From an uncultured Succinivibrionaceae bacterium (GTDB taxonomy: Bacteria > Pseudomonadota > Gammaproteobacteria > Enterobacterales > Succinivibrionaceae), in contig CASEBB010000002.1 in assembly GCA_949286015.1 (NCBI GenBank), forward strand, positions 9,981 through 73,980: a stretch of 64,000 nt of DNA, given 5' to 3'. The stretch's first letter is position 1. Each line of letters opens with the position of its first letter. This document shows positions 4,314 to 45,561 of the stretch, one piece after another. The notes under the pieces were generated by a model. It had not been told where the DNA came from. It saw only the letters and a program-made list of their open reading frames with translations, and ran no database searches. Made by a program: the position numbers and the translations under genes.

Positions 4314-4410
4314 GAAGCTGTTACCAGCCTTAATAGATGACGGGCTTTAGGGTAAGCATGGTACACCGTCCTCAGTGAGGATTAGACTCAGCTGCACCAT
4401 TCATCTCACA
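4314..4410 (-). repeat. Partial MITE-like element copy (subfamily 2)
   Basis: GAAGCTGTTACCAGCCTTAATAGATGACGGGCTTTAGGG...GGATTAGACTCAGCTGCACCATTCATCTC aligns with the reverse complement of copy 11102-11250. The far end is degenerate. Confidence 0.65.
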
Positions 4411-4560
4411 CAGCTCCGCAGAGCCTTTGTGCTGTAACTCTCTGGTTGCGGGCTCCTTGATGCGTCATTCTGCTAATATTGGCGCTTGCTAAGGTGGCAG
4501 CTATCTGTGGCTCACTACCTCTTTAGCGCCTTTAGACAGACAAACTCAATTTGAGGCTTT

Positions 4561-4575
4561 CCAGATAGTATCTGG
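4561..4575. promoter_or_regulatory. Perfect 7-1-7 palindrome CCAGATAGTATCTGG, candidate operator upstream of the antitoxin-like gene
   Basis: Read directly. It is nested in a second inverted repeat GAGGCT...AGCCTC (4552-4587) and ends 31 nt before the 4606 start. Confidence 0.3.
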
Positions 4576-4605
4576 CAGCAGAGCCTCCACACGGTCACCT
4601 CTGGA

Positions 4606-4974
4606 GTGCCCATGGATAACTACGATCAGGATCCAGCTGACGACAGCGAGATCTACCCGCGCCCTAATCCGCTTGCTCCCATCTTAGAAAAGCTCAAAAC
4701 CCCCGCAGATATCGCCGCCTATCTCAATAATGCCGTCAACCCCGACGATCCGAGCAAGCTCTTTGCGGCCTTAGGCATAGCCGCGCACACGCGCAATATC
4801 AGCCACTTATCCCGTGATATGGGTATCACCCGTCAGGGCTTTAATAAGGCCTTTGCGGCTAAGGGCAACCCTTGCTTTGTGACGGTACAAAAGCTCTGTA
4901 CGGAGCTGGGTATCAGCATTAGCTTTACGCCGCTCCCCGAGCATAACAGCACTGATAGTAGCGAGCAGCAGTAG
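4606..4974 (+). CDS. HTH DNA-binding protein of the 'addiction-module antidote' (HigA-like) type, with no toxin partner detected
   Basis: 122-aa ORF. The segment ADIAAYLNNAV..DP..LFAALGIAAHTRNISHLSRDMGITRQGFNKAFAAKGNPCFVTVQKLCTELGISISF matches the pattern I recall for the antidote family paired with RelE/ParE-type killers. Start is GTG 4606 or ATG 4612. Confidence 0.65.
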   Translation: MPMDNYDQDPADDSEIYPRPNPLAPILEKLKTPADIAAYLNNAVNPDDPSKLFAALGIAAHTRNISHLSRDMGITRQGFNKAFAAKGNPCFVTVQKLCTELGISISFTPLPEHNSTDSSEQQ

Positions 4975-5363
4975 CGCTCTCTTACAGGGCCGCTCCCCTC
5001 GGTTAAGGGCTGTTGCAGTGCTCTCTTCAGTGCATGTGGGCATATCCCTATTAAGTGGCGCCACCACAAACACACTGCACCTCCAAGGTAAGCCCCTTAC
5101 CCGAGCTCTATGCACAGGAAAAGAGCGTTTTCCCACTTGTGCCTGCAGAGTATTGTCCTCTATGTTATGGGCTTACAATCGGCCTTTGCGGTGGGTTAAG
5201 CCCCTTGAAGCAGCAACCTGCTATGGCGCAGCAAGCGTCGCTATCGCTACATACCTCAAGGTAAATTAATGGCCATGAGCTTTGCTCACACCCGTGGAAA
5301 ACGCCCGCGACAAAACGTACTTCCACTACCGGTGCTAAATCCTAAGAAATGACCACAGACGCA

Positions 5364-5390
5364 AAGGGGCTCACACGAGCCCCTTTTGCT
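5364..5390. terminator. Hairpin plus T-run, likely bidirectional terminator
   Basis: AAAGGGGCTC-ACAC-GAGCCCCTTTTGCTTTT lies between convergent genes (4974 end, 5424 end). Confidence 0.6.
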
Positions 5391-5423
5391 TTTCCTGAGG
5401 TTTAGCGCAAAACGCAGCAGCGC

Positions 5424-8150
5424 TTAGTCGTCGCTGTCGTCTTCACTGGTGCTGTTGACCACAATGCGCCCAAACTTGTCAGGAATAATGATGCCCTCTT
5501 CCTTCATCGCTGCCAGCTTGTAGCGCAGCGTGCGCGGGCTGATGCCCAGTTTGTTGGCCACCTTCACACGGCTGCCATCAAACTCCATCAGCGCATCGAG
5601 AATCATCTTGTACTCCTGCTTTTTGAGCTTGGAGTTTAAAGACGCATTGTCATCATCCGTCTTGAGCAGGTTGTTGCTCTGCGTGCCGACCACCGACAAC
5701 GCTGCCGCATTGGCCGCGTTCATCACGCGCGCAAAGTCACCTGGCGACAGAGGCGTCACCAATGGGTTTTGCCCACCTATCGCCGCTGCTGCCATAGCGG
5801 CCGCTGCTGCCGCCATATTGGCTACCGCCTGCTCATGGGTGCTGGCACTTGCTTGTGGCTGAGGCGCACTCTGAATATAAGTCGTACCCGCTGGCACCCC
5901 AGGGACGCCCATTACCGGCATACTCATCGCGCCCATACCAGGCAGCGTTGGTACCATACCAATATTAGGCGCGCCGCCACTCAAGACATGCGACATGTCC
6001 ACCGAGTGGTCAATCTCAGAAGTCACCTCGGTGCTGCTCTTGGCCTTATCTGCGGCTTTGTTATCTTCAAGCGGAGCGTAAGCCTGAGCCTCAGTACCAT
6101 CTGGCGGTAGCGCGTGACGGCCCCCCGCTGGCGTCTGTGTTGGCAGTGGTCGACGGCCCGCTGGCGGCGTCGTGGCAGACGCTGCGGCAGACGCAGCAGG
6201 GGCCTGTGGCGTCACTGGAGCCGTTGGTGCGACCGGAGCGTGGGCACCTCCCGTTGCGCCCTGCGGCGCGGCGTGCTGTGCCACGCCATGGGATCCCGAG
6301 ACAGGGGCACTACCAGAGTGTGCGCCTACAGCAGCAGGACGCACAGGCATCTGTGGCCGTGGTGGTACCTGCGGGCGTGGTGGCACTGCTACCCCCGCAG
6401 GCATCTGCGGTAGCTGTGGTGCTACAGGAGCTGCCGCTGCCGCAGAGGTTCCTTGGACGCTGGCAGCGGCTGGGGCCGTGGCTGAGGTCGTCTGGCTAGA
6501 TGCAGGAGATTGTGGAGCCACAGGCATCTGTGGCGCGGTCGGCAGCTGCGTCACGTGCGAGACATAAGCCGAGGAGGTTGGGGTTGGTGGCACCGGCGGC
6601 GTTGGAGGCACCGGTGGGGCTGGTGGCATCTGCACAAAGGCATTACCCGCAGCCTGTGGGTAGCCCTGCTGCATGCCTTGCATGCTTTGCATTCCCTGCT
6701 GCATACCCTGCATGCCTTGACCTGCAGGCACGCCTGCACCATAGGCCATCATGCCTTGGGGCTGCTGAGGCTGCTGCGCTTGCTGCCCGTAAGGCGCCAT
6801 CTGCACGTCGTCAGGTAAGACGCCTGGTGGCAGCGGCGCGCGATTGACGCGCTTACGCTCGTCATCATGGTATGAGGCCGACTGATTGACCACCGGATTG
6901 AAGCTATCGCTATTGGCATCCAGCACGAGGTCAGCCACCTGAATGGCATCACCATTACAGAGAATGAGCGCACGCTGCATCACATTCTCCAGCTCACGCA
7001 CGTTGCCAGGCCAGCCATAATTGTAAAGGGTGTCCTGTGCCTCTTTGGTCAGCTCCGGAATGGTGTGACCAATGGTCACCGAGTAGCGCTGTAAGAAGAA
7101 GTTTGCTAAAGGCAGGATGTCGCCTTTGCGCTTGTTAAGAGGCAGCCAGCGTAATGGGAAGACATTTAAGCGGTAGTACAAGTCCTCTCTGAACTTGCGC
7201 TCATACACCGCCTGCTTTAAGTCACGATTCGAGGTCGCGATGACGCGCACATCAAGCTGAATGGTCTTTTGGCTACCTAAGCGCTCCACTTCGCGCTCTT
7301 GTAACACACGTAAGAGCTTAGCTTGCAGGCCCAAATCCATCTCGGTGATTTCATCAAGCAGGATAGTACCGCCATTAGCTTGCTCAAACTTACCAGGACA
7401 GGCTTGGAAAGCGCCGGTGAACGCACCCTTTTCATAACCAAAGAGAGTCGCTTCCAGCATGGTGTCAGGGATAGCGGCGCAGTTAATGGCCACAAAAGGC
7501 TTCTCCGCGCGGCTCGAATTCTCGTGCACGTAACGGGACAGCACTTCCTTACCGGAGCCTGATGGGCCGGTGATCATCACCGTAGCATCAGTCTTTGCGA
7601 CCTTTAAGGCCATCTGTAAGAGCTCGCCGGTGCTCTGATCGGCCCAAATAGGCTCGCCTTTGGAGATGCGTCTTACTGGTGTATAGCGTGACACCTGAGC
7701 TAAGAGCACCTCAGGGGCAAAAGGCTTAGCGAGGTAGTTAATGGCACCCTCGCGCATGGCTTTGACGGCGCCATCAATATTGGCGTAGGCCGTCATTAAG
7801 AGCACAGGAATATGCGGGTACTTATCGTGGATGCTGCGCAGCAGGGTATGACCGTCCATACCCTCCATTTGGATATCGGCGATGACCATATCCACTGGGC
7901 GCCGTTGCAACGAGGCCAGAGCTTGAGCGCCGTTACCTGCTTGATAGCAGGTATAACCGGTTAAAGCTAAGGTATCGACAATGGCCTCGCGCAATTGCAT
8001 GTCATCATCAACCACCAGAATCTTGCTTGGATTTGGTTTACGTGATTTCTTTTGCAAGAGTTTGTCCCCACGCAACAAAAAATTCCTGTCTCCGCGCTGG
8101 CAAGACCAGACGAGAGCAAAAGTGCCAGCTTCAGAGCAGAAAAAGCCCAC
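5424..8150 (-). CDS. Sigma-54-dependent response regulator (NtrC/FlrC/FleR family) with a ~420-aa low-complexity linker
   Basis: Receiver (ILVVDDD, ADIQMEGMDG, LAKPF). AAA+ sigma-54 interaction domain (Walker A GPSGSGKE, GAFTGA loop, Walker B ILLDEITE, RVIATSN). C-terminal Fis-type HTH (VANKLGISPRTLRYKL). The true start is probably internal, e.g. TTG at 8057 preceded by GGGGA. Confidence 0.9.
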   Translation of the reverse strand: MGFFCSEAGTFALVWSCQRGDRNFLLRGDKLLQKKSRKPNPSKILVVDDDMQLREAIVDTLALTGYTCYQAGNGAQALASLQRRPVDMVIADIQMEGMDGHTLLRSIHDKYPHIPVLLMTAYANIDGAVKAMREGAINYLAKPFAPEVLLAQVSRYTPVRRISKGEPIWADQSTGELLQMALKVAKTDATVMITGPSGSGKEVLSRYVHENSSRAEKPFVAINCAAIPDTMLEATLFGYEKGAFTGAFQACPGKFEQANGGTILLDEITEMDLGLQAKLLRVLQEREVERLGSQKTIQLDVRVIATSNRDLKQAVYERKFREDLYYRLNVFPLRWLPLNKRKGDILPLANFFLQRYSVTIGHTIPELTKEAQDTLYNYGWPGNVRELENVMQRALILCNGDAIQVADLVLDANSDSFNPVVNQSASYHDDERKRVNRAPLPPGVLPDDVQMAPYGQQAQQPQQPQGMMAYGAGVPAGQGMQGMQQGMQSMQGMQQGYPQAAGNAFVQMPPAPPVPPTPPVPPTPTSSAYVSHVTQLPTAPQMPVAPQSPASSQTTSATAPAAASVQGTSAAAAAPVAPQLPQMPAGVAVPPRPQVPPRPQMPVRPAAVGAHSGSAPVSGSHGVAQHAAPQGATGGAHAPVAPTAPVTPQAPAASAAASATTPPAGRRPLPTQTPAGGRHALPPDGTEAQAYAPLEDNKAADKAKSSTEVTSEIDHSVDMSHVLSGGAPNIGMVPTLPGMGAMSMPVMGVPGVPAGTTYIQSAPQPQASASTHEQAVANMAAAAAAMAAAAIGGQNPLVTPLSPGDFARVMNAANAAALSVVGTQSNNLLKTDDDNASLNSKLKKQEYKMILDALMEFDGSRVKVANKLGISPRTLRYKLAAMKEEGIIIPDKFGRIVVNSTSEDDSDD

Positions 8151-8357
8151 TTAGCGCAGGTAACACCACCTACGGTAAGCTGCTTTTCACTGTCACCACC
8201 ACCGAAGAAGGCTGCTAAAACCAAGGGTGGCTGTTACCGCGAAATTCAATGGAGCTGTGCCGCTTGGCTACAAAAGTAGCAGTACAGAGTGTCTTATGTG
8301 CTAGCACTGCGCCAGCTTACGGACACGGCCTGTACACGGCATCTGACGCCACTTTTA

Positions 8358-8506
8358 GGAAAGAGTGAGCTCATAAGTGACGGCTGTAATGGTGTGTGGT
8401 TGCAACGTCCCACCTCGAGATAAAAGGTGCAAGCGAGCCTGAGCCTATCTTGAGATGGGCCTGCATGCGTGCCCTAAATTCCGTCATTTATTGAGTCAGT
8501 CGTTCC
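8358..8506 (+). mobile_element. MITE-like palindromic element, subfamily 1 (reference copy)
   Basis: 149 bp. Left end GGAAAGAGTGAGCTCATAAGTGACGG, right end CCGTCATTTATTGAGTCAGTCGTTCC (imperfect terminal inverted repeats). Central hairpin CCTCGAGATAAAAGG...CCTATCTTGAGATGG. Near-identical to 11245-11393 and 41372-41519 (opposite orientation). Confidence 0.85.
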
Positions 8507-8542
8507 TTGGCGTCATGTAATCTTGATCTTTAAGATGCAGCC

Positions 8543-10921
8543 TTACGAGCGCTGTGGCCCATGCGCTTTGCCTCGACCCCGTGTGGAGACTTTAGGCGGT
8601 TTGATCTCGATGTCGACCTCTCTAAAGCCAAATTGCTCCGAGGGCACGGTCTCGTAAGCTTGCGCTGGGCTCTGGTTTTTTGCATGCGCCTTACGCACAG
8701 CGCGGTGATGTGGACTTACTTTGTCCTTAGCGCCGCTACCCTGCTGCTTGCCTGGCATACGGGTATCACCCGCCATACGGGCATCCCCCGCCATGTGAGC
8801 ATCGCGGCTTAAGCGCATGCTGCTTAAAAGCTCTTGTTCCTGCTCAGAGGTGACAGCAGTTTCACCTACAGCAGCACTGCCCAGCTGATGGCTCTGGGCA
8901 TAATGCGCAAAAGCCTGCAAGGTAGCTTGATTTGCCGAGAGGGCCTCTTGCTTAGAGACCTGCTCTGCCGTTGGGGGCAAATTGCGCATGGACTGCGGCA
9001 CAAAAGTAAGATCACTCACGCTATTGGCCGTGGTCTGCGGCGTGTGCGGCGCTAGCGGTGCACTCATGTACGGCGCAGAAGGAGCAGACGGCGCTGCTGC
9101 TACCGCTGCAGTGGCGGTGGCAGCTGCTTCTGCAGCTTCTGCTACAGCTGCCGCTTGGGCCCGCTGCTCTTGGGTCGCGGCCAGAAAATGCTCCAGCGTC
9201 AGTTCCTCAGTTAAGGCCTCAGGGCGTGCACTGGCACTGGAACTAACACTAGCAGTGACATGCACGGTGTCAGTAGCGCTTATGGCATTAGCATCACTTA
9301 GAACATCAGTGGCGCTGTCTCCCTCAGCTGTGCGAGCGTCAGTAACGCTAAAGGCGTCAGGAGAAGCGCTGGCTGGAACCAGAGTAGTAGCCTCTGAAAC
9401 CACCTCTGGAGCGCCATCCTGAGAGGACGCTAAGTACGCATTCAGGCTCTGCGGCGCCACCTCCTGACTTGGGCGTGGCGCTGGCTCTAAGCTCAGCTTA
9501 GCGGCAGGGTCAGACGCGCTGCGGCCTAATTTTACCGCATCCGCCTCGGTGCCGGTGTTGTACGTACTCTCGGCCCTACTCTCTGCCGTCGCAGCTTTAT
9601 CTGGTACAGCACTGGGTGTGTCTTCTGCTACAGACTGTGGCGGCTCTGGCTCTTGAGCGTGCTGCGACGTCGGCTCAGACATGCTCTGTGACACAGGCAG
9701 GCTTTGCGGCTCTGGCATGCTCTGCGGCACAGGCATGCTCTGTGGCTCTTGCTCTGGCTCTAAGCGCGGCGCTGGAGACGCGGCAGGCGTCTCAGATACT
9801 GTGGTTGCGCCGGAACTGTTGACGCTGCTCAGCGTACCTAAGGCAGCGGTGGCCAGCAATTGCTTATTCTGCGCTTGCACCACAGCGTTTACCGCCGCAT
9901 TTACTGGTGCTGGGGTCGCAGTCGATTGTGGCTGATAGCGCGGAATCGAGATCGTAAAGACCGTGGTAAAAGGCTCAGGCCACGCAGTCAGCGTCAAGAG
10001 GCCCTGATGCACCTTTGTCACGGCCGAAACCACGGCTAAGCCTAAGCCAGTACCGGAGCTTTTAGAGGTAAAGAACGGCTCAAAGATCTTAGTTTTCAGC
10101 TCTTCAGGGATGGTAGGGCCGTCATTAGCCACGCTAAAGACCACCCGATCCCCCTCCCTATCGACTTTAAAGGCAATTTGCTTAGCCCCTGCTTCTACAG
10201 CGTTAGCAATGAGGTTACATAAGGCGCTATTTAAAGCGACAGGATTACCTAAGATGGGGAGCTTAACCGCTGGATCATAGACGGTGAGCAGGTGTGCCTG
10301 ACTGCGCTCAAGTAAAGCTGTGACGTTATTGACCACAGGGGCAATGAGCTCGGTGGCATCCATTTCACTCACGGTTTGCTCATTGGAGCGAGCAAACATG
10401 AGGATATCGCTGATTTGTGCTTCTAAGGCCTCTAAACGGCTCATCAGCTTTTGCTGAAAGCGCTGCCGCATCTCAGGGGCGAGATCATCATTGGCAAGGT
10501 TCGAGGCGTAGAGCAGTGCCGCTGACAGCGGGGTACGAATCTGGTGAGCTAAGCTTGCGGCCATGCGTCCTAAAGAAGAGAGACGCTCCATATGGGACAA
10601 CTTCTCTTGCAGCAGACGCGTCTCGGTAAGATCGGTCATCTGCACCAATTGGCCGTGAGCTAAAGGAATGGTAGCCACTTGTAAGCGGCGGCCGTCGCGG
10701 GTAGAAATCTGGTGGCCATCGTCGTTACGCGGGCGAAACACTTGGGAGATCACTTCGACCCAGTGCTCTCCTGTAAGGTGGTCACTGCCCATAAGCTTAA
10801 GGGCGCTGTCATTGGCGTGGGTGATGATGCCGTGATCATCAATAATCAAGATGGCCGCAGGGATTTTGGTAAACACCTCAGCCATTAAGGCTAAATCGTT
10901 ATTTTGCTGCGGGGTGCTCAT
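8543..10921 (-). CDS. PAS sensor histidine kinase (NtrB/FlrB/FleS-like) with a ~460-aa low-complexity C-terminal tail
   Basis: Start set at the internal ATG (MSTPQQNN). H-box SLAHQIRTPLS, N-box CNLIANAVEAG, G-boxes ANDGPTIP and SGTGLGLAVV. The catalytic core ends near ...FTISIPRY; the remaining A/S/P/E/Q-rich sequence has no recognisable domain. Confidence 0.85.
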   Translation of the reverse strand: MSTPQQNNDLALMAEVFTKIPAAILIIDDHGIITHANDSALKLMGSDHLTGEHWVEVISQVFRPRNDDGHQISTRDGRRLQVATIPLAHGQLVQMTDLTETRLLQEKLSHMERLSSLGRMAASLAHQIRTPLSAALLYASNLANDDLAPEMRQRFQQKLMSRLEALEAQISDILMFARSNEQTVSEMDATELIAPVVNNVTALLERSQAHLLTVYDPAVKLPILGNPVALNSALCNLIANAVEAGAKQIAFKVDREGDRVVFSVANDGPTIPEELKTKIFEPFFTSKSSGTGLGLAVVSAVTKVHQGLLTLTAWPEPFTTVFTISIPRYQPQSTATPAPVNAAVNAVVQAQNKQLLATAALGTLSSVNSSGATTVSETPAASPAPRLEPEQEPQSMPVPQSMPEPQSLPVSQSMSEPTSQHAQEPEPPQSVAEDTPSAVPDKAATAESRAESTYNTGTEADAVKLGRSASDPAAKLSLEPAPRPSQEVAPQSLNAYLASSQDGAPEVVSEATTLVPASASPDAFSVTDARTAEGDSATDVLSDANAISATDTVHVTASVSSSASARPEALTEELTLEHFLAATQEQRAQAAAVAEAAEAAATATAAVAAAPSAPSAPYMSAPLAPHTPQTTANSVSDLTFVPQSMRNLPPTAEQVSKQEALSANQATLQAFAHYAQSHQLGSAAVGETAVTSEQEQELLSSMRLSRDAHMAGDARMAGDTRMPGKQQGSGAKDKVSPHHRAVRKAHAKNQSPAQAYETVPSEQFGFREVDIEIKPPKVSTRGRGKAHGPQRS

Positions 10922-11101
10922 AAATGATCTCTTGCTCAGGAACAAGTGAGCGTCTCTTGGAGGCGGGGCAACATCACAGGGAAAGCTGGGAAAGCCGCAA
11001 AAGCTGAGCGCCAAAGAGCGCCGTAAGGTCTCACTATAGCACGCTTTTGCGGTAATACAGTGGCAAGGCGAGTCTAGGTGCAAAATCAAGGTTGGCACTT
11101 A

Positions 11102-11250
11102 GGAAGGAGTAATCTCATAAATGACGGAAGATGGGCTGTGTGCTGGCACGGTCCCCCACCTCGAGATGAATGGTGTAGGAGAGTCTAAGACTACCTGAGG
11201 ACGGTTCACTAAGATTCCCCTAAAGCCCGTCTTCTATGAAGCAAGTAACG
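11102..11250 (+). mobile_element. MITE-like element, subfamily 2
   Basis: GGAAGGAGTAATCTCATAAATGACGG...CCTCGAGATGAATGGTGTAGGAGAGTCTAAGAC...CCGTCTTCTATGAAGCAAGTAACG. It abuts or overlaps the next copy by ~6 nt. Confidence 0.8.
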
Positions 11251-11393
11251 ACTGACTTAATAAATGACGGAATTTAGGGCCCGCATGCAGGCACATCTCA
11301 AGATAGGCTCAGGCTCGCTTGCACCTTTTATCTCGAGGTAGGACATTGCAGCCCCGCACCACTACATCCGTCACTTATTAGCTCACTCTTTCC
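11245..11393 (-). mobile_element. MITE-like element, subfamily 1
   Basis: GTAACGACTGACTTAATAAATGACGGAATTTAGGGC...TTTTATCTCGAGG...CCGTCACTTATTAGCTCACTCTTTCC is the reverse-orientation match to 8358-8506. Confidence 0.85.
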
Positions 11394-11422
11394 TAAGTTG
11401 TTCCCTTGAGCCATAAGGGGAC

Positions 11423-11509
11423 GTGGTGGTAGTGATGGTGGTGGTAGTGGTAGTGATGGTGGTAGTGGTGATAGTGGTGATGGTAGTGGTTGTGGTGGTA
11501 ATGGTGATG
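11423..11509. repeat. GGT-rich minisatellite (GGTGGTAGTGAT-like units)
   Basis: Read directly. It lies next to the MITE copy and generates the spurious His/Tyr-rich ORF on the minus strand. Confidence 0.8.
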
Positions 11510-11700: not shown

Positions 11701-11757
11701 CAAACAAAAAGCCCCCGTCACCTTAGAGCACCGCCGCACTCCAAGATAACAGGGGCC
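11701..11757 (-). terminator. Long imperfect hairpin plus T-run, rho-independent terminator of purL
   Basis: The minus strand reads GGCCCCTGTTATCTTGGAGTGC...GCTCTAAGGTGACGGGGGC followed by TTTTTGTTTG, about 125 nt after the purL stop. Confidence 0.7.
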
Positions 11758-15780: not shown

Positions 15781-16402
15781 AACACACAAGTCCTGCAGAA
15801 GGCGGCCAAAGAAAAGATGCGATATTTTAGCAGAATACGGCAGATATGCCCAAACTGAGGGGGCGTGCAGGAAGAGATTGCATGTACAGAGAAAGAGGCG
15901 TGATGGCTAAATGGTTGGTGCCTACAGTTACGTGGTGCGCTTACAGCGCCCGCCCCTAACAGAGCCTTGCTCTGCACCTGAGACACTCTTATGGACGGTA
16001 ACCTCTTGCAGAGCTCTCATCGCTGCTTCTGCTTCTGCATCTGCTAAAGATCCCAACGCAGTTCAGTAGCATGAGTTGATAGAGATCACACTTTCTAGGG
16101 GTAGTTTGCGGACGCTCACCCATGGTGAGGCGTCTGCCGGTACTGCCAATGATACTGATAGAATCAAGGCTGGAGCTACGCTCCTATCGATTTTTCCTTT
16201 TGAGCACCTTACCGCTGGCCAACGGTAAAAATGTGATCTACATCCACTCATGCAACTGAACTAATCCCAACGCTTTTCTGCTACCATCCCTAAACAAGCT
16301 GCATCTACTGCAAAGCAGCCCTTTTATCCGCTATCCACAACCTTGCACTGGAGACGGCGCTTTTCCCAAAGTGATCTTGGGGCTATCGGCGTCGGTTTTT
16401 TC

Positions 16403-19275: not shown

Positions 19276-19444
19276 GGAAAGAGTGATCTCATCAGTGACA
19301 GCGGTATGGCTGCGCGATAGCAACGCCACCTACCTCGAGATGCATGGTGCAGGTGAGCTTGAGCCTATCTGCAGCCGTAGCAGTTGGCAGTCCTGACCCT
19401 TTGCTCTACATGCCGTCAACAACGAGTATTAAGTCAGCTGCTTC
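19276..19444 (+). mobile_element. MITE-like element, subfamily 2 variant
   Basis: GGAAAGAGTGATCTCATCAGTGACAG...CCTCGAGATGCATGGTGCAGGTGAGCTTGAGCCTATCT...CCGTCAACAACGAGTATTAAGTCAGCTGCTTC. Confidence 0.8.
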
Positions 19445-22452: not shown

Positions 22453-22608
22453 GGCGTAAGTGCGCTCATAAGTGACGACTGCAAGCCTAAGTACGGGTAA
22501 CGCCCATACCTCGAGATGAATGGTGCAGGCGAGCCTGAGCCTATCTCTATCTTAGGGGTGGTCACACCAGCTTGCCTTTATTCCGTCATCTCTGAAGTCA
22601 GTTGTTCC
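22453..22608 (+). mobile_element. MITE-like element, subfamily 2
   Basis: GGCGTAAGTGCGCTCATAAGTGACGA...CCTCGAGATGAATGGTGCAGGCGAGCCTGAGCCTATCTCTATCTTAGG...CCGTCATCTCTGAAGTCAGTTGTTCC. TTT lies on both flanks. Confidence 0.85.
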
Positions 22609-23917: not shown

Positions 23918-24074
23918 GGAAGTAACCTACTTAATAGCTGCTGGACTTTAGGGGCATCAAGGGCAATGTCCTAAGATAGGATTAGACTCACCTGCACCAT
24001 TAAGCTCGAGGTGAGGTGGCCTTGCCATCATCATCATCATCCCCTCTTCCGTCATGTATGAGATCACTCATTCC
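23918..24074 (-). mobile_element. MITE-like element, subfamily 2
   Basis: The reverse complement reads GGAATGAGTGATCTCATACATGACGG...CCTCGAGCTTAATGGTGCAGGTGAGTCTAATCCTATCTTAGG...; closest to copy 45412-45561. It contains an internal (CAT)5 run. Confidence 0.8.
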
Positions 24075-26477: not shown

Positions 26478-26575
26478 CAGAGCGACTGACTTAAGAGATG
26501 ACGGATTTGTGGTCAGCATGCATCCCCCATCTCAAGGTGTAGCACGTTGCCATCACTTATGAGATGACTCCGTCC
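26478..26575 (-). mobile_element. MITE-like element, internally deleted copy
   Basis: AGAGCGACTGACTTAAGAGATGACGG...CATCTCAAGGTG...TCACTTATGAGATGACTCCGTCC. Both termini are present and one arm of the central hairpin is missing. Confidence 0.7.
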
Positions 26576-34128: not shown

Positions 34129-36066
34129 CTACTGATCCTTCTTCACCGTAAAGACACGGCTGCTGCGGTGCACCACCTTTGGCCCGTTGCTCTCGTGGCC
34201 AGCACCGGCGCTGTTACCACCCTGCTGATAGCGGTTCTGGTAACCGCCTTGGCCCGAGCTTGGCTGGTAGCCACCCTGTGGGCGGTAGCTGCTGCCACCC
34301 TGTGGACGGTACGAGCTGCCGCCTTGTGGGCGATAGCCGCCACCACCTTGCTGGTAACCACCACCTTGTTGGTAGCCACCACCCTGTGGGCGGTAGCTGT
34401 TACCACCCTGTGGACGGTACGAGCTGCCGCCTTGTGGACGGTAGCCGCCACCACCTTGCTGGTAACCACCACCTTGTTGGTAGCCACCCTGTGGACGATA
34501 GCCACCGCCTTGTGGACGGTAACCACCAGCACCAGCCTGTGGACGATAACCACCACCCTGTGGACGGTAACCGCCTTGGCCTTGAGGGCGATAGCCGCCA
34601 CCCTGCTTGAAGCCACCAGGGCGACGTGGTGCCTGCTTGCGCTGCTGTTGCTTGCGCTGCTTGGCGGCCTTCTTCTTGGCCTTGGCTACGTCCTCAGCGA
34701 TCTGCTGCTTAATGCGAATGATCTCTTGACGAGCGTTCTCGCGGTGCTCCGGCTCAATCTCGCTGACCACGTTACCCTCGAGGTCAACACGAGGCACGCC
34801 ATCAGCCAGCTTCTGCAGGTAAGGAATGGAGTGGCAGTAGTTGTGGAGCATCTTGTAGCGATGCTTGTTGAAGTAGTTGTACTGCGCATCCATGCCCTCT
34901 AAGCGCTGCAGGATTTCCTGCGCAATACCAATCTTTAACGGCACGCGCTTGTCACGCTCGGTAAAGATGGCCTTAGGGAAGGCTAAAGCAAGGAAGCTTA
35001 AGAACTTGTCGCGCTCAGCCTTATCACGGGCACGACGCTCTTCAGCGGCCTTACGCTCCGCAGCGACCTTAGCGCGGCGTGCAGCACGCTCCGCTGGGGT
35101 CAGAATAGGACGGTTGTCACGCCACGAGCCCTTCTTCTTTGGCTCAGCACCGTCCCCCTCTGCACTAGGTGCCTCTCCCTCAGCAGGGGCAGCAGCACCA
35201 TCAGCGCTAGCTGGCGCTGTCTCAGCAGGAGCAGCCTCTACAGCTGCTGGGGCCACTGGAGCTTCTGCAGCTACAGGGGCAGCAGGAGCGGCTACTGGCT
35301 CAGGAGCAGCAATTGGCTCTGGCGCCTCGGCCTCGGCTGGGGCAGCGGCTGGAGCCTCAGCCTTATTGCCGATGTCATCGTCAGTGGTGGCTGGTACAGC
35401 CTCAGCTTCGACGCGATTGCCGATGTCGTCATCTTCCTCAGCATCAGCATCAGCTTCAGCAGCAGCGCCACCAGCAGCATCTTGCGCTTTGGCAGCGGCC
35501 GCTAAGGCTTTGATCTTATCTGACAGGGACGACTCAGCAGTGGCACTCTCAGCAGGGGCATCAGTTACAGCAGCTTCAGCTGCGGCGGCAGCGGCAGCAG
35601 CGTTGTCAGCCTCGATCTGGGCCTTGGTGCGACGGGTACGCTTTGGCTTGACCTCTTCACCAGCTTCAGCAGCGGCGGCAGCAGCTGCGGCAGCGGCAGC
35701 ATTGTCAGCTTCGATTTGCGCCTTGGTGCGACGGGTGCGCTTTGGCTTTACCTCTTCACCGGCGGCTGCGGCCTCAGCAGCAGCTGCAGCGGCAGCGGCA
35801 TTGTCTGCCTCAATTTGCGCTTTAGTACGGCGGGTACGCTTTGGCTTGACCTCTTCACCAGCCTCAGCGGCGGCTGCAGCAGCGGCGGCAGCGGCGGCAT
35901 TGTCAGCTTCGATTTGCGCCTTGGTGCGACGGGTACGCTTTGGCTTGGTCTCAGGAGCATCAGCGTTTACGATCACAGTACGTGGCAGGTCGTCACCTGC
36001 ACCTGTGAGCGTGCTTTTTTTTCGCGTAGCGGTTTGCTCCAAGCCGCTCGAGTTTTCGCTATCCAT
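34129..36066 (-). CDS. ProQ/FinO-domain RNA-binding protein with repetitive N- and C-terminal low-complexity regions
   Basis: Central segment FLSFLALAFPKAIFTERDKRVPLKIGIAQEILQRL...YLQKLADGVPRVDLEGNVVSEIEPEHRENARQEI aligns with E. coli ProQ (FLAERFP..F......PLKIGI......R.....YL.....G..RVDL.GN...E....H.E.A). ATG at 36066 is preceded by GGAG. Confidence 0.85.
   Translation of the reverse strand: MDSENSSGLEQTATRKKSTLTGAGDDLPRTVIVNADAPETKPKRTRRTKAQIEADNAAAAAAAAAAAEAGEEVKPKRTRRTKAQIEADNAAAAAAAAEAAAAGEEVKPKRTRRTKAQIEADNAAAAAAAAAAAEAGEEVKPKRTRRTKAQIEADNAAAAAAAAEAAVTDAPAESATAESSLSDKIKALAAAAKAQDAAGGAAAEADADAEEDDDIGNRVEAEAVPATTDDDIGNKAEAPAAAPAEAEAPEPIAAPEPVAAPAAPVAAEAPVAPAAVEAAPAETAPASADGAAAPAEGEAPSAEGDGAEPKKKGSWRDNRPILTPAERAARRAKVAAERKAAEERRARDKAERDKFLSFLALAFPKAIFTERDKRVPLKIGIAQEILQRLEGMDAQYNYFNKHRYKMLHNYCHSIPYLQKLADGVPRVDLEGNVVSEIEPEHRENARQEIIRIKQQIAEDVAKAKKKAAKQRKQQQRKQAPRRPGGFKQGGGYRPQGQGGYRPQGGGYRPQAGAGGYRPQGGGYRPQGGYQQGGGYQQGGGGYRPQGGSSYRPQGGNSYRPQGGGYQQGGGYQQGGGGYRPQGGSSYRPQGGSSYRPQGGYQPSSGQGGYQNRYQQGGNSAGAGHESNGPKVVHRSSRVFTVKKDQ
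34210..34620 (-). repeat. Coding repeats for the GGYRPQ / GGGYQQ tail
   Basis: Protein aa ~484-620: GGYRPQGQGGYRPQGGGYRPQAGAGGYRPQ..., including a larger internal duplication GGGYQQGGGYQQGGGGYRPQGGSSYRPQGG(N/S)SYRPQ. Confidence 0.9.
35572..35946 (-). repeat. About 3.8 tandem 99-bp coding repeats (33-aa unit KPKRTRRTKAQIEADN-polyA-GEEV)
   Basis: The word GCTTTGGCTT recurs at 35641, 35740, 35839 and 35938 (99-bp period). The protein shows three full units and one partial unit. Confidence 0.9.
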
Positions 36067-36957
36067 CAACTTAACTCCGATAACACCAACTGCTCTGAAT
36101 GCTAATACGCACGGTAACCAACACAGCGCGCCTTACCACCCTACAGCACCGGCTATCCTAAAAGAAATGATCACACTAGACTCGACTACTGTCTCCTAAA
36201 AGACAGTCACCTTTAGTCTAGGGCCGCATGGCAGATCGATCATTAGTAAACATAGAGCTGACATTGCCCTATGACAAAACTCTCAACAACGAAAAACTAC
36301 TTCCTGAGAAGCACAAGCCGACCACACCTTTTTGCTATGAGTACTCCGTTGAGGAAGGGTCAGCATCGCGTGGCATGCAAGAACACAGCACGCGCTTTTA
36401 GATGCGATAAAAAGCACAGAGTACTACTAATGTACAATGAGAATACCAAAAATTTCGACCAGAGAGCACATCTCACGTAAAAAATTTCTATGGCCCGTTG
36501 CAGTTACAGGCATAGCACAAGAAAGGGAGGCGCTTCAGGGCTTAAATAAGGGCAAAATGCCTGCTACAGGTGCAAGCTGCAACCACTGCTCTGACCACGC
36601 AAGGACGCTCACTCTTATGGTTTCACGTGGCATCAAGGTAGGGAAAGCTGTAGGGCAAAGAAGGGCGGGACAAATGGCAGGTGAGGAGAGGAAGCAAGGA
36701 AGCTGGAATAACGCCTGACGGCACTGTTATCTCAAGCAGATTAAGATCTGACCTCACTTCAAGGTAAAGTGCTCTCCTTGAGGTAATCAGATGCGGCGCT
36801 ATCTCTAAGGCCGGAGGCGCTGAGCTCACCTCAAGGTAACAGGGACGCCGCTAACCAGAGACAACAGCGCCTAACGGCGCTGCTATCCCCAGAGGAGCAA
36901 GGAGATTAAAGGGCAGCCACGTACTATGGCGTGGCCATACCCTGTAGAGACTACTCC

Positions 36958-38988
36958 CTACTTGCTGCTCTTACCGGCCTTTTTGACGCGCTTTTTCAGC
37001 ACTAAGCCCGAACCAGTGCGTTTAGCCTCGGCAATGGCCTTATTGGTAGCACGGGCGGCCTTTTGCGCCGAACGCTCATAGCGACGCTCGGTCTCAGCTT
37101 GACGGCGCTGCTGACGCATCTTCGATTGCGTCAGACGCTTCTGCGCTGGCTTCTCATTGGCGTAAGGGTTATCACCCTCCTTAAACTCCAGAATCACTGG
37201 CGAGCCCATGATGTGCAGCGACTTGCGGTAGCAATTGATGAGATAGCGCTTATAGCTATCTGGCATCTTTGAGACCTTATTGCCGTGGATGATGATACGT
37301 GGTGGGTTATAACCACCCGCATGGGCGTACTTGAGCTTAATGCGACGACCGCCAGACATAGGAGGCTCGTGCTCTTGTACCGCCGCCGAAAGAATGCGGT
37401 TTAAGGTCGACGAGCTATTACGACGCGTGGCCGACTCATAGGCCTCATCAATCGACTCAAAGAGGTTGCCCACACCGGTACCGTGTAAGGCCGAAATAAA
37501 GTGCACGCGCGCAAAGTCCACAAAGCCTAAGCGCAGCTCTAACTCCTGCTTAATCTCATGCTTAAAGTCAGTAGTCAGACCGTCCCACTTGTTAACGGCA
37601 ATGACCAGCGAGCGCCCCGAGTCAATGATAAAGCTCAACAGCGATAAGTCCTGATCAGTGATGTGCTCACGGGCATCAATCACTAAGATCGCCACGTTGC
37701 AGTCCTCAATCGCCTTTAAGGTCTTCACAATCGAGAACTTCTCAATGGCGTCAGAGACCTTGCGGCGCTTACGGACACCGGCCGTGTCGATCACGATGTA
37801 CTTTTTGCCCTCGCGCTCGAGTGGGATGTAAATAGAGTCACGCGTGGTGCCTGGCATGTCAGCGACCACCACACGCTCCTCACCTAAGAGGCGGTTGGTC
37901 AGCGTGGACTTACCCACATTAGGCTTACCGATCAGCGCAAACTTAATTGGCAGGTCAGCAAATGGTGTCTTGGTGCTCTCGGCAATCTTTTGTTGCTGCT
38001 CCGCGCTGAGCTCACCCTTTTGCTGGGCACGCTGGTTCTCACGGAAGTTATGCCAATCAAAGCCACCACCGGTGCGATCCACAGGCACGTTATCAAGGAA
38101 GGCGTAGCCCTGTTCCCACTCACTGTTCTCTTCACCATGGCGTTGGTGACGTGGTGCTTGTCCCTGTGCCGCGTCTTCTGCGTCGCTAAAGTCAAACTCG
38201 TCTAAGTCGAGGCCATTACCTAAGGACAGGTCAGAGGCAATATCCGTTACCTCGTCGCTAGCAGCGTCAGCGTCGGCATCAGTGTCAGTGTCAGCAGAGT
38301 CAGCAGCAGCGTCAGACTCATCATCTTCTGCGTCGTCGGTGTCATCCTCAGCAGCGTCTGCATTGCCAGCAGCAGAGGTAGTAGCAGCAGGCCGCTCATA
38401 GAGCTTGCCGGAGACATCGATCTCAAGCTCGTTGTCTTCTTCCTCGTCCTCAGCCTCCGCGATCAGATCGCTCTCCAGAGGGCCCTCTTCACGCAGGATA
38501 GGCGCAACCACCTCCTCTAAGAGGATATTGACGCCACGGCCATGCACTACTGCCGTCTGGTAGATCTCTCCTAAGCCTAAGGCATAGAAGTCAGTACCAG
38601 CGATGTCCAGATCCATACCGTCGACCTTATTGGCCACGACAGCGCATGGCTTGCCAGAGCGGCGAATGTAATCAGCGACAGCATAATCGCCAGGCATAAT
38701 GCCCGCGCGGGCATCGACCATAAAAAGCACTAAATCGCACTCATCAATGGCCAGTAAGGCCTGCGAGGTCATACGACTGGTAAGATCCGATGGTTGCTCA
38801 GCATCTTCGGCAATACCACCGGTGTCGATAACGATGTACTCGCGGCCATCGTATAAGGCACGACCGTACTTACGGTCGCGGGTTAAGCCAGGGAAGTCTG
38901 CCACTAAGGCATCACGGGTCTTAGTTAATCGATTAAAAAGCGTGGATTTGCCCACGTTTGGGCAGCCCACTAAGGCCACAACCTTCAT
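36958..38988 (-). CDS. der: Ribosome-assembly GTPase Der (EngA) with expanded inter-domain linker and basic C-terminal extension
   Basis: Start [21 protein letters not shown]. Second GTPase domain [20 protein letters not shown]-like C-terminal domain. The ~180-aa D/E/A-rich linker lies at aa ~171-350 of the ORF. Confidence 0.95.
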
Positions 38989-39530
38989 GAATAACCCCTG
39001 CACTAAAGGCCACTGCGTCAGTTTCGCTTGTTTCTACTAAGGTCGCTCACAAACGAGCTGAAACTTACGTCTCACGGCTGTAGCGCTTCTAAGTTCCCTC
39101 TACCAACATCACGCCAGCACCAGACTAGCACGCCTGTGCTTCTGTGCTCCGGTGCTTCCTGCCACCACTTGGCGTGATGACAGTTATCGCTGGTAATAAT
39201 GACGGGAACAACAAAATCTTACGACCTCACGGTCGGAACCACGGCAGTACAAAGCGACAAAGCTACAACGCACCTCTGGTGCCTTTGCAGCTACGCCGAG
39301 AGTATCCCAAAAAGCAAATCCCAAAGGAGGTAACTGCCTGCAATCAGGTGTTTTATCCTGAGAGGCGGTGTTTGCTGCGGCGCTATCCTCAAGATAAGAC
39401 GCCGTCAGGCGCTTTTTAGGTTACCTACTCTACGCCCATTAGCTAATAAACTGCTCAAACTGCATATTTTAGCGTTTTCTACGGCTAAGGGCAAAGCTTA
39501 GCCCCACACCGCAGCTCCGCTCTTTACCGC

Positions 39531-41172: not shown

Positions 41173-41371
41173 GTTCTTTTTTCCACGTTAACGGTGACGT
41201 TGATGCTCTGTATTGTAAGACATACGCGGGCGGGACTAAAGCCTTTTGCCAAGATACTAAAGGCTTTGGCCAAGAGGCAGCAAAGCTGTGGCGCAAGCAC
41301 ATAGCTTTGACACGGGCAAAGGCTGTGGTACAGGCACAGCCTCTGGCGTAAGCACAGGGCTTTACTGCTTT

Positions 41372-41519: not shown

Positions 41520-41531
41520 TTTATGGCAGTC

Positions 41532-42257: not shown

Positions 42258-42476
42258 AGAAAAATCTCAAAAAGGAAAACGCTCTCCACCATCAGTAGAG
42301 ACAGCCAAGTCTAAGCTACGAGGCTTAGCCTCGCCTTAGCTTAAGAGGGGCGCCGTTTATCTCCGCTTTCACCGGCGCTGCCCTCTATGGAGTACCACAG
42401 CTTGCTCCAAGCCTTGCGGGGAAGTTACAGGGAACTCACTGGGAGCTCACTGGGTACTCGCAGGGAACAGTAAGCT

Positions 42477-43766
42477 TTAGGCCTCAGCCGCGCTCTGCTG
42501 CAAGATGCTCTTGATCAGCGCTAAGGCCTCAGTCTCTGGCACCACCTGTTGCTCGGTAGTACGCAGATTCTTAATCGTGAGGGTGCCGTTCTTCAGCTCC
42601 TCTTCACCTAAGATCACAGCCACCTTAGCCTGCACCTTATCCGCACGCTTTAACAGGCGCTTAAAGTTGCCACCACCGCAGTGATTCATGACACCTAAGT
42701 CAGGTAAGGCTGCACGTAACTGCTGACAGATACGCAACTGCGCCGCTTCGATGCCCTCGCCCATGCCACAGACATAAACGTCCACAGCACTTGAAACTTT
42801 AATCTTACCTAAAGTGGTCAGCAAAAGCATCAGTCGCTCAAGACCTAAGCCAAAGCCCACCGCTGGGGTTGGCTTACCGCCTAATTGCTCCACTAAGCCA
42901 TCATAGCGACCACCGCCGCACACCGTACCTTGGGCACCTAAGGCCGTAGTCGTCCACTCAAACACGGTCAGATTGTAGTAATCCAAACCACGCACTAAAC
43001 GTGGGTTGAGCTTAAAGGAGATACCCTGCGAAGTTAAGAGCTCTTGCAGCTTGGTAAAGTGCGCCTTGCTCTCCTCACCTAAGTAGTCATAAAGCGTTGG
43101 GGCATCCTTTAACAGCTCTTGGACTTGTGGATCCTTGCTATCGAGCACACGCAGTGGATTGGTGTGGGTACGACGCTTTGAGTCCTCATCGAGCTTATCG
43201 AAATTGGCCTCAAGGAACTTGACCAGATTCTCTTTGTAGACCTTACGCTCGTCGTTACTACCTAAGGTATTGAGCTCTAAGGTCAGATCGCCAGCGATGC
43301 CCAGCTTGCACCATAAGTCGTGCGTTAAGCAGATAATCTCCGCATCGATGTCAGGGCCATTTAAGCCAAAAACCTCCACGCCTAATTGGTGGAATTGGCG
43401 ATAGCGACCCTTTTGTGGACGCTCGTGGCGGAACATAGGCCCCATGTACCACAGGCGCTGCTCTTGATTGTAGATTAAGGAGTGCTCTAACGCGGCGCGG
43501 ACACAGCCGGCGGTGCCCTCAGGACGCAGCGAGAGGCTATCACCGGAGCGATCGGTAAAGGTGTACATCTCCTTTTCCACGACGTCGGTGACCTCACCGA
43601 TGGCACGGCTAAAGAGGTTGGTATGCTCGACGATTGGCATACGCATTTCGCTGTAGCCGTAGGAAGAAACGGTTTGCCGAATAATCTTTTCTACCTGCTG
43701 CCAAATGGAGGTGTCCTCTGGCAGGAGGTCGTTCATACCACGAATGGCCTGAATGGATTGCGCCAT
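42477..43766 (-). CDS. hisS: Histidine--tRNA ligase
   Basis: 429 aa. [19 protein letters not shown]. Class II motifs [20 protein letters not shown] and GGGRYDGL. Confidence 0.97.
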
Positions 43767-43995
43767 GTTGCAGATTAATCCTATAAAAAGAGCTCCACCA
43801 AAGCCGCGTCAGAAAATTAAGGCAAGGGCTCTGGGGATGAAATCTAATAAGTCATGAGCGGCCCGTCTTACGCCAAATTGCTCACTCAGAGGTGTGTTGG
43901 CTTGGTGGCTCTTCTCTTTGTCTGGTAGAGAGCACCAAGCAGCATCGCTCCTGCGCTCAAGAAGAGGATCAGTGCTGGCTTTTGGCGTGACCAAT

Positions 43996-44176
43996 CTTGA
44001 GGTTGGTGTTGGTGTCCTATCTACCAAAAGCGGCTCTTATCAGAGGTTGATGGCTAGAGCCACACACTGCTTTTAGGTGGCTAACATTAAACGCCATAAC
44101 CGCCATAACCACGGCTCAGGTGCTTGCCTCAAGATTTGAGGCTACGTTGTGGTATCCACCAAACTCTGAGGAGAGC
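43996..44176. repeat. Second repeat family ('X'), copy 2 (longest)
   Basis: CTTGAGGTTGGTGTTGGTGTCCTATCTACCAAAAGC... followed by GGTTGATGGCTAGAGCC...CTTTTAGGTGGCTAACATTAAACGCC...ATAACCACGGCTCAGGTGCTTGCCTCAAG...ACGTTGTGGTATCCACCAAACTCTGAGGAGAGC. Confidence 0.75.
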
Positions 44177-44207
44177 AGTTTGCTGGCGTGCCAGCCGCAC
44201 ACCACAG

Positions 44208-45329
44208 CTACTTGCTAACAGATTTGACCTTGGTGTCAGGAGTCTCGTCTCCTTCGGCTAAGGCCCGCACGCGACTTTCGACGCGCTCTAAGATCTCCTC
44301 AGTGCCAATCCGGCCCATCAGCTCACCATGCTCGTAAATCAAGCACTTGCCGTTTTTGCCACCACAGATAGCCACATCAGCGTGTAAGGCTTCACCAGGG
44401 CCATTGACCACACAGCCCATAATGGCAATCTTGATGGGCTTGCGAATGTCAGCTAAGCGCTGCTCCAGCGTCTGCACGGTGCCCACCACATCATAGCCGC
44501 GACGCGAGCACGTTGGGCAGGCCACAATGTTAACGCCACGACTACGCAAATGCATGCTCTTTAAGATCGCCCAGCCGACTTTGACCTCTTCTACAGGGTC
44601 AGCAGCCAGCGATACACGCAAGGTATCACCAATACCCTTTTGCAGCAGCATACCAATGCCAATCGAGGACAGCACGGTACCAGCGGTGAGACCACCGGCC
44701 TCAGTGATACCCAAATGTAGCGGGGCATCAGTCTTTTGCGCTAAGAGCTCATAAGCAGCCACGCATAAGTAAAGCTCCGAGGCCTTTACCGAAAAAGCGT
44801 AGTCCACAAAGTTGTGGCTCTCAAGAATCTCTGCCGAGCGTAAAGCTGCTTCGACCATAGCCTCAGGATTAGGCGCACCGTACTTTTCAAGCAAGTCCTT
44901 ATCTAAGGAACCGGCATTGACACCCACGCGAATCGGCAGACCGTGATCCTTGGCCGCTTGGCAGACAGCCTCTACCTTGTGACGGGCACCGATATTACCT
45001 GGATTGATACGCAAAGCAGCAGCACCATTTTCGGCACAGGCAATAGCAATGCGGTAATCAAAGTGGATGTCAGCCACAATTGGTACCGGAGATTGCGCCA
45101 CGATGCTCTTAAAGGCTGCGGCCGCCTCCATGGATGGCACCGAAACACGCACGATGTCAGCACCGACGTCAGCTAGAGCTTGCACTTGCGCCACGGTTGC
45201 GGCGACGTCGAGAGTTTCAGTGCAGGTCATACTTTGCACGGAGATAGGAGCGCCTCCGCCAACGAGCACTGAGCCCACTTTTATTTGCCGTGAGTTACGG
45301 CGCACGATCTGTGGTGCATGCCACTCCAT
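44208..45329 (-). CDS. ispG: 4-hydroxy-3-methylbut-2-en-1-yl diphosphate synthase
   Basis: The ORF runs to 45353. The ATG at 45329 is preferred (GGAG 6 nt upstream, giving ~373 aa). Motifs [13 protein letters not shown] and [10 protein letters not shown]. Conserved synteny. Confidence 0.95.
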
Positions 45330-45411
45330 AACCATCTCCGAGGCTGGGAACAAAAACGGAAAAGAAAAGAGAAGAGTAGGAAAAGCGAAAGTTTCTAGCG
45401 CCTAGCGCCTA

Positions 45412-45561
45412 GGAATGAGTGATCTCATAAGTGACTAAAGATGGGATGCGTAAGGGCAAATACACACTTTAAGATGCATGGTGCAGGTGAATCTAATCCT
45501 ATCTTAGGATAGGTGCACCATGATTACCCTAAAGTCCCTCATCTATAAAGTCAGTCGTTCC
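45412..45561 (+). mobile_element. MITE-like element, subfamily 2
   Basis: GGAATGAGTGATCTCATAAGTGAC...GATGCATGGTGCAGGTGAATCTAATCCTATCTTAGGATAGGTGCACCATG...CATCTATAAAGTCAGTCGTTCC. The copy sits between rodZ and ispG. Confidence 0.85.

Follow-up and report, generated by a model that had tools for sequence, protein, structure and literature searches.

What are the short palindromic segments that occupy so many spacers of this stretch of DNA, and what is their relation to the genes between which they lie? The window, by which we mean the whole 64-kb stretch analysed here, comes from an uncultured Succinivibrionaceae bacterium (contig CASEBB010000002.1), and the first-pass annotation had listed in it ten copies of an unclassified element resembling miniature inverted-repeat transposable elements (MITEs). 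Our comparative analyses make it very probable that these copies form a genuine MITE family, that is, a non-autonomous, non-coding derivative of an insertion sequence of the DDE type, and that it has been mobile in recent times. We reach this verdict because the copies combine terminal inverted repeats (TIRs), a target-site duplication (TSD) fixed at 3 bp, a target preference, filled and empty alleles, a nested insertion and a lack of coding capacity. The earlier reading as a mobile, MITE-like family is upheld by the fixed duplication, the preferred target, the empty site and the private and nested insertions described below.

We aligned the ten listed stretches with MAFFT and searched the window with an nhmmer profile of the eight full copies. 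The stretches fall into a single family, conserved at the ends and in the centre, of eight full copies (E 2.7e-44 to 3.3e-35) and two partial ones (Table 1; copies are named after their first coordinate). All ten are real and lie where they had been placed, the full copies in the window measure 148-169 nt as reported, and the termini quoted for the family are exactly those of copy 8358.

The family extends beyond the window. An exact-pattern scan of GTDB for the core motif CCTCGAGATNNANGGTGCANGNGAG, in which each of 185,579 species was represented by a single genome, returned 29 stretches, 26 of them in a single genome, the chicken-gut metagenome-assembled genome (MAG) of Candidatus Anaerobiospirillum pullicola, GCA_018884035.1; the three remaining matches, isolated in Actinobacteria, were taken as chance. 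Those 26 stretches contain about 45 distinct nhmmer hits and 36 full copies, which settles that the window is not the only place where the element occurs. Exact matches to the core pattern number 30 in this fragmented assembly, a count which suggests that the genome-wide copy number may be at least several dozen. Between the window and the core-pattern loci of the MAG, the elements are alike and the flanks never are.

Across the enlarged set of 44 full copies, obtained after nhmmer on the A. pullicola MAG loci, the element is 132-169 nt long. It is bounded by 26-nt imperfect TIRs with the consensus GGAATGAGTGATCTAATAAGTGACGG ... CCGTCATCTATTAAGTCAGTCGTTCC, which form Watson-Crick pairs at 21 of 26 positions and G:T pairs at two more (counted by hand) and are the best-conserved blocks of the element, with identities to the consensus of 0.88 and 0.86. 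An asymmetric 43-nt core, CACCTCGAGATGAATGGTGCAGGTGAGTCTGAGCCTATCTTAA, is conserved to the same degree across subfamilies (0.86), the adjoining stretches reaching 0.67-0.69. As a single strand, the element folds into a long imperfect hairpin, and the central hairpin described previously is significant against dinucleotide shuffles for most copies (z -3.2 to -7.1), copy 11102 being the exception (z about -1.3). Coding capacity is absent, in agreement with the earlier reading: none of the 44 copies has a stop-free stretch of more than 49 codons, and just three of 264 frames run open from end to end. Nor is there a transposase domain among the window's open reading frames (ORFs) scanned with Pfam, as had been stated for this stretch.

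Target sites and insertion history

Directly outside the GGAA...TTCC ends, with flanks printed in element orientation, stands a 3-bp direct repeat. It is exact in 22 of the 36 clean-ended copies, whereas 2000 permutations of the pairing of flanks gave 5.1 on average and never more than 12; at other lengths, the same copies give two matches for 2 bp, one for 4 bp and none for 5 bp. TTA accounts for nine and TAA for five of 25 exact duplications, and the target logo is loosely palindromic, CNC|TWA|SNG, with information at -3 (C), at -1 (C), at the three TSD positions T-W-A, at +3 (G/C) and at +5 (G). The TTT on both flanks of copies 22453 and 41372, offered earlier as a possible target duplication, belongs to a 3-bp duplication that holds family-wide.

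Have the copies moved within the lifetime of this lineage? Orthologous loci at graded distances were reached through homologues of HisS and YdcZ. The window lineage is a close sister of the A. pullicola reference, with HisS identical at 423 of 429 residues (98.6%), and orthologous 21-kb loci of the two are ~91-96% identical in coding stretches and less so in spacers. At the rlmN-der locus (21 kb), the sister lineage carries no copy of the family. Between yfgM and bamB, it shows a precise empty site, GCCATTAAAGAGTAAAGCCCT, with a single target triplet, also in the A. pullicola reference MAG, where the window reads GCCATAAA[148-nt element]AAAGCAGTAAAGCCCT. Reciprocally, L071, a locus of the sister, holds a private full copy at 17866-18015 flanked by TAA/TAA; at the corresponding place in the window (around 15943-16264), TAA stands just once. 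In the rodZ-ispG spacer, the sister has a different, 140-nt element of a second family in place of copy 45412, and copy 23918 is likewise absent from the sister, a 943-bp spacer of unrelated repeats standing there instead. Presence/absence polymorphism between relatives is thus documented from both sides, by the empty yfgM-bamB site and by the private insertion at L071.

One insertion has landed inside another. Copy 11245-11393 sits in the right terminal repeat of copy 11102, whose last 8 nt, GTTGTTCC, resume at 11397-11404; the flanking triplets of the nested copy are CAA / TAA. The two had been listed as overlapping copies, and while both exist, the overlap is really an insertion of 11245 within 11102.

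Other copies have stayed in place for longer. Copies 22453, 26478 and 19276 are common to both lineages and are therefore older than the lineage split: copy 22453 has its ortholog at L071 11092-11245 (identity ~84%, judged by eye on the alignment), copy 19276 has a degraded ortholog at L071 14505-14625, and copy 26478 has a longer one at L071 6491-6615. The window HisS recurs residue for residue on metagenome scaffolds in ENA from many samples, and conspecific contigs (97-99.9% identical) carry every window copy at the same site with small indels only; copy 41372 is fixed in all contigs examined with an identical HisS (at least nine metagenome samples), and in one conspecific strain copy 45412 is truncated at its 3' end. 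Such constancy among conspecific contigs from many samples, together with the three copies held in common with the sister, is what an ancient orthologous intergenic motif, fixed in all relatives and immobile, would produce. A motif of this kind is nevertheless contradicted by the precise empty site with its single triplet and by the reciprocal private insertion, and it sits badly with one copy nested within another, with a 3-bp duplication far above the permutation expectation, and with four more distant lineages (HisS 81-86% identical) in which nhmmer found no copy at the orthologous loci at E<1. We give it virtually no chance of being correct. The spacers of these four relatives are too diverged for base-by-base alignment, precise empty sites coming from the sister lineage only, and in one more distant relative the rodZ-ispG spacer is just 12 bp.

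Clustering yields at least six multi-copy subfamilies with an internal divergence of 6.5-15%, against 28% overall, and recovers the two core types distinguished earlier among the window copies. Subfamily A, comprising the three 'AAAAGGTGCAAGCGAG' copies of the window (8358, 11245 and 41372), has a mean divergence of 6.5% and occupies non-orthologous sites in both lineages, whereas the orthologous shared copy has diverged by ~16% (by eye); subfamily A was therefore amplified after the split in both. Either a conserved master copy was kept in both lineages, or the source moved between them. On this comparison of orthologous loci and divergences, the family is shown to have been active before as well as after the split of the window and A. 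pullicola reference lineages.

Source of the transposase

How would such an element move? We propose that a transposase encoded elsewhere in the genome would bind the 26-nt TIRs and insert the element by a staggered 3-bp cut, preferring T-W-A within CNC|TWA|SNG, and that repair would then double the triplet. It is from the anatomy of the element that we infer both this way of transposing and a transposase acting in trans. The chance that the enzyme belongs to the IS5 superfamily (IS1031/ISL2-like, PIF/Harbinger-type) appears to us about even, because a 3-bp TWA duplication is found here together with terminal repeats that start with GG. Within IS5, the duplications left by the IS1031 and ISL2 groups are 3 bp or 2-3 bp long and fall at TNA. 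Canonical Harbinger elements, eukaryotic relatives of the IS5 family, have 3-bp TSDs (PMC12730594).

The element might instead be the non-autonomous partner of a family other than IS5 that makes 3-bp duplications, such as some members of IS3 or IS30, or of a family as yet undescribed, a source that we consider possible while stopping short of calling it probable. A TSD of 3 bp, taken alone, is common to several IS families, and no parent element was found. Yet the termini start with GG and end with CC, whereas IS3- and IS481-type ends read TG...CA, and T-W-A in a palindromic context is a hallmark of the IS5 superfamily and PIF-Harbinger (PMC12730594), neither point amounting to a direct test.

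The parent was looked for in several places. A fuzzy search of ~300 kb outside the known copies gave no solo terminal repeat beside an ORF; the TIR pattern returned 14 isolated chance hits in JGI metagenome contigs, none of which had an inverted partner less than 4 kb away or was supported by nhmmer; viral contigs gave zero hits for the core and TIR patterns; and plasmids, phages and E. coli genomes yielded no partner either. This failure is weak evidence, because short-read, fragmented MAGs rarely assemble multi-copy insertion sequences.

Several observations count against the interpretation that we favour, a recently mobile MITE family, perhaps driven by an IS5-type enzyme. Fourteen of the 36 copies lack an exact TSD, most of them being off by one base, a pattern that fits decay without proving it. 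TSD length and target alone carry the IS5-type assignment, and the autonomous partner with matching termini was not found. Conservation of the core at 0.86 is not predicted by simple neutral decay of dead copies and suggests some cis-function, be it a requirement of transposition or another one. Finally, the forward strand gives the better RNA fold in 38 of the 44 copies (Wilcoxon p 5e-7), which could hint at selection at the RNA level.

Consequences for the host

Do the copies serve the genes around them? They lie in spacers between long ORFs taken as genes, four overlap flags having been taken as spurious ORFs, and this placement shows that it is only between genes that copies have survived, whichever way they point; among co-directional gene pairs, 15 are sense and 15 antisense. 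The gene contexts named by the first-pass annotation were correct by Pfam, which identifies a sensor kinase beside a sigma-54 activator, purL, a pyruvyl-transferase/Fe-S pair, ydcZ, two ABC permeases with an ATPase, and the cluster rlmN-rodZ-ispG-hisS-yfgM-bamB-der. A position inside an operon, as described earlier, does not hold for the 11102/11245 pair, which is downstream of a terminator-like hairpin of purL, nor for copy 23918, which separates divergent genes. These units had been described as normally compact, an expectation based on E. coli, since in this clade a spacer that lacks the element is long as well (the empty yfgM-bamB spacer of the sister is 164 bp).

Co-transcription, and hence some effect on individual mRNAs, is plausible. 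A co-transcribed copy would bring its long imperfect hairpin into the mRNA, where it may affect processing; by analogy with what is reported for Correia elements, the ~70-bp stem could then attract double-strand-specific RNases. One may go further and regard the element as a structured RNA selected by the host, a REP-like regulator that sets mRNA stability, processing or termination and whose mobility is secondary. Copies between co-directional, probably co-transcribed genes, folds far more stable than shuffles, the advantage of the forward strand in 38 of 44 copies and the core block conserved at 0.86 would all agree with such a role. The 15:15 orientation, however, shows no bias; RNAalifold returned zero consensus pairs over the 44 copies, and the inner part of the fold varies from one subfamily consensus to another; and consensus scans for sigma-70 promoters and intrinsic terminators found no recurrent motif, with one weak terminator-like site in one copy. 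Moreover, the yfgM-bamB and rodZ-ispG copies are absent both from the sister, for all its ~91-96% coding identity, and from the four distant relatives, and Rfam gives nothing. The strand asymmetry itself we attribute to two G:T positions in the terminal repeats; because it is inherited through them, the 44 copies are not independent in this respect. A host-selected regulator of this kind therefore seems very unlikely to us. By eye, a sigma-54 promoter or an integration host factor (IHF) site in the variable or core region was rejected as well, the consensus spacing not being met.

The proposed role of the hairpins in differential stability or termination of mRNAs thus received no support from these tests: sense and antisense orientations balance, no structure is shared, no motif recurs, and the copies are dispensable between lineages. 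A regulatory role for the host is, if anything, disfavoured, and we infer that the family behaves like tolerated selfish DNA and not like a host regulatory device. It is conceivable, though doubtful, that the core is a functional module, either a cis-site recognised by a factor of the host or of transposition, or a cassette of the RNA or protein-binding kind, that rewires the expression of housekeeping clusters between sister lineages. If this were true, the core cassette and the second, unrelated MITE family would rewire clusters such as rlmN-rodZ-ispG-hisS-yfgM-bamB-der differently in each lineage.

Neighbouring repeats, distribution and known families

Table 1. Copies of the element in the window, tandem core-like units, and copies of a second repeat family in the window and elsewhere.
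Feature	Coordinates	Strand	Evidence	Location and remarks
Full copy, subfamily A	8358..8506	+	nhmmer E 2.7e-44	Between sensor kinase gene (8543-11098, -) and sigma-54 activator gene (5424-8150, -), antisense to both; flanks TTA / TTG; fold -58.3 kcal/mol, z -5.2
Composite older copy	11102..11404 (11102-11244 plus 11397-11404)	+	nhmmer hit 11102-11252, E 4.8e-39	3 nt ahead of the start of the kinase ORF; downstream of hairpin 11757-11710 (terminator-like, purL)
Full copy, subfamily A	11245..11393	-	nhmmer E 4.9e-43	
Full copy, 169 nt, internal insertions	19276..19444	+	nhmmer E 3.3e-35	Fe-S/FrhB-like gene on one side, TPP-enzyme gene on the other
Full copy, TSD TTT	22453..22608	+	nhmmer E 2.4e-35	Spacer between pyruvyl-transferase gene and ydcZ
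Full copy	23918..24074 (nhmmer 24074-23919)	-	nhmmer E 1.6e-35	Divergent spacer, ydcZ versus ABC permease gene; internal (GAT)n microsatellite, element length 149, 158, 161 and 164 nt among conspecific metagenome contigs
Internally deleted copy, 98 nt, both ends kept	26478..26575	-	nhmmer model positions 91-148 and 2-75, E 4e-06 and 4e-03	Spacer between second ABC permease gene and ATPase gene; matches as two end pieces, as expected, because it is internally deleted
Full copy, subfamily A, TSD AAA	41372..41519	-	nhmmer E 3.4e-41	12 nt past the yfgM stop codon, 199 nt ahead of bamB, sense orientation
Full copy	45412..45561	+	nhmmer E 1.6e-38	rodZ / ispG spacer, antisense
Partial copy, 3' half (model positions 61-141)	4314..4410	-	nhmmer E 1.4e-17, alignment	Downstream of sensor kinase gene 2068-4050
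Three tandem units with short core-like stretch	1550..1909	-	nhmmer E 0.16, 0.32, 6.4	
Second family	30832-30973	-		
Second family	44031-44178	-		
Second family, diverged	61733-61846	+		
Second family	L065 8061-8210, 9415-9648, 11307-11441			
Second family	several A. pullicola MAG loci			

Tandem fragments had also been reported at 1560-1905. Similarity to the core is indeed present there, if weak: the stretch that each unit has in common with the subfamily-A core, taken as its reverse complement, is ~25-45 nt long and centres on CTTTTATCTCGAGG and its neighbours, and the units may be weakly related, core-derived fragments.

The second family, unrelated to the first, is MITE-like as well, ~135-150 nt long with TIRs of roughly 24 nt, GGCTCTNCTCAGAGTTTGGTGGATA ... 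TATCCACCAAMCTCTGAGNAGAGCC. It too is polymorphic: the sister carries it in two spacers that lack it in the window, rodZ-ispG and hisS-yfgM, and a copy between ispG and hisS is found in both lineages. A third short repeat, of 145 nt, occurs at two unrelated loci (L071 9107-9251 and L029 5360-5504, 96.6% identical); it sits in the 943-bp sister spacer that replaces copy 23918, a spacer which also holds an internal 173-nt direct repeat. Beyond the MITEs, spacers of the sister lineage differ by many 40-210-bp indels and by short repeats of the AAAGCC...TGTGC type (for instance, window 15943-16264 versus L071 17600-18080 and window 41173-41371 versus L065 12450-12593), and intergenic DNA turns over much faster than genes between the two lineages.

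The window has further unusual features. Downstream of purL, at 11710-11757 (-), stands a strong intrinsic-terminator-like hairpin (20-bp stem, then a T-run) that separates this gene from the MITE pair and the kinase gene. Low-complexity insertions lengthen the sigma-54 activator (5424-8150, 908 aa) and the sensor kinase (8543-11098, 851 aa), as well as Der (36958-39003, 681 aa; 575-695 in relatives) and RodZ (45628-47163, 511 aa; 481-612 in relatives). A ProQ/FinO-domain protein of 646 aa (34129-36069, -) contains long low-complexity regions encoded by tandem repeats of 99 nt and 108 nt; strains differ in the length of this protein (625-660 aa), and metagenome contigs tend to break nearby.

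Toward the end of the window, the tetranucleotide tracts (CAGT)6 at 58591-58615 and (GTCA)7 at 62928-62955 lie at the 3' ends of the paralogous ORFs 56148-58670 and 62345-63013. Behind each of these ORFs comes a short one in another frame (58724-59092 and 63031-63435, respectively), whose product corresponds to the C-terminal part of an FkbM methyltransferase domain. Both of these FkbM frames are open back past the tract, so that a change in repeat number would fuse the two ORFs, and the genes look like phase-variable ones that are split at present. They lie some 22 kb from flagellar fliS/fliT/Maf-type genes (29.5-33.8 kb). The paralogous gene blocks of this region (56148-58670, 59442-61397 and 62345-63966) share segments that are 72-80% identical and contain large ORFs without a Pfam domain, and a 145-nt repeat is present at 61316-61460 and 62057-62201 (95% identical).

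Does the element belong to a family already named? Searched against Rfam 15 at gathering thresholds, the whole window was without a hit; with the limit relaxed to E 1 for 8300-11450, a region with three copies, no hit fell on any of them. BLASTN with the consensus matched nothing in plasmids or phages, nor, at word size 11 and E up to 10, in 5,426 complete E. coli genomes, and full-text literature searches with strings of the element's sequence, and with the genus name and 'repeat', gave nothing relevant. The earlier statement that the sequence lies outside the recognised families agrees with all of these searches. As far as they reach, the family appears restricted to the Ca. Anaerobiospirillum pullicola clade, and it has apparently not been described before.

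Its closest analogues in build are the IS5-derived MITEs of bacteria, such as BrickBuilt/MITEPgRS of Porphyromonas gingivalis, with the termini of ISPg1/3/4/9, and the Neisseria ATR, with those of ISNme1 (PMC4596501). Like them, the present element is short, non-coding, multi-copy and intergenic, with TIRs presumed to be bound by a transposase in trans, and some of them contain internal simple repeats comparable to the (GAT)n of copy 23918. Unlike them, it has unrelated termini (GAGACCTTTGCA there, GGAATGAGTGATC here) and lacks the matching full-length insertion sequence that is known in those cases; BrickBuilt differs further in its inconsistent duplications, compared with a clean 3-bp TSD here. 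Bacterial MITEs typically number 10-20 copies per genome (PMC4596501), so that ten copies in 64 kb represent a much higher local density; 42 kb of sister-lineage DNA contain four. With Tourist-like MITEs and PIF-Harbinger, the family shares a 3-bp TWA (TTA/TAA) duplication, short TIRs, a length of ~100-300 bp and subfamilies derived from few masters, but those elements have eukaryotic hosts and need a second, Myb-like protein, and the resemblance is one of mechanism only, similarity in sequence not being expected.

Correia elements (CREE/NEMIS) are similar in their length of ~100-155 bp, 26-nt TIRs, hundreds of copies, frequent co-transcription and long hairpins, which are reported to be cut by RNase III. 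They differ in a 2-bp TA duplication, an IHF site, outward promoters and their confinement to Neisseria, compared with a 3-bp TSD, no recurrent promoter or terminator site and a host among the Succinivibrionaceae here, and a 2-bp flank match in just two of 36 copies rejects identity with them. ERIC/IRU elements are imperfect palindromes of ~127 bp in transcribed intergenic regions of Gammaproteobacteria (Enterobacterales, Vibrio), but with a TA target and no clear subfamily bursts; E. coli genomes carry ERIC copies, and identity is rejected by the lack of BLASTN similarity in the 5,426 E. coli genomes. REP/BIME sequences are intergenic and palindromic too and stand at times between co-transcribed genes. 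REPs are 20-40 nt long, are without TIRs or target duplications and are tied to RAYT (TnpA-REP) transposases; the unit here, of ~150 nt with 26-nt TIRs and a 3-bp TSD, is not one of them.

What, then, does the family add? It leaves the general view of mobile elements unchanged, and provides a well-defined MITE family, with clear ends, a TWA TSD, a target logo, subfamilies and dated insertions, in the Succinivibrionaceae, where no report of one was found. Its copies explain the fragmentation of these MAGs, and they are insertion markers at the level of strains and lineages of gut Anaerobiospirillum. Finally, the pairs of filled and empty alleles in housekeeping clusters offer a natural test of whether a long hairpin, carried in the mRNA, alters downstream expression at all.

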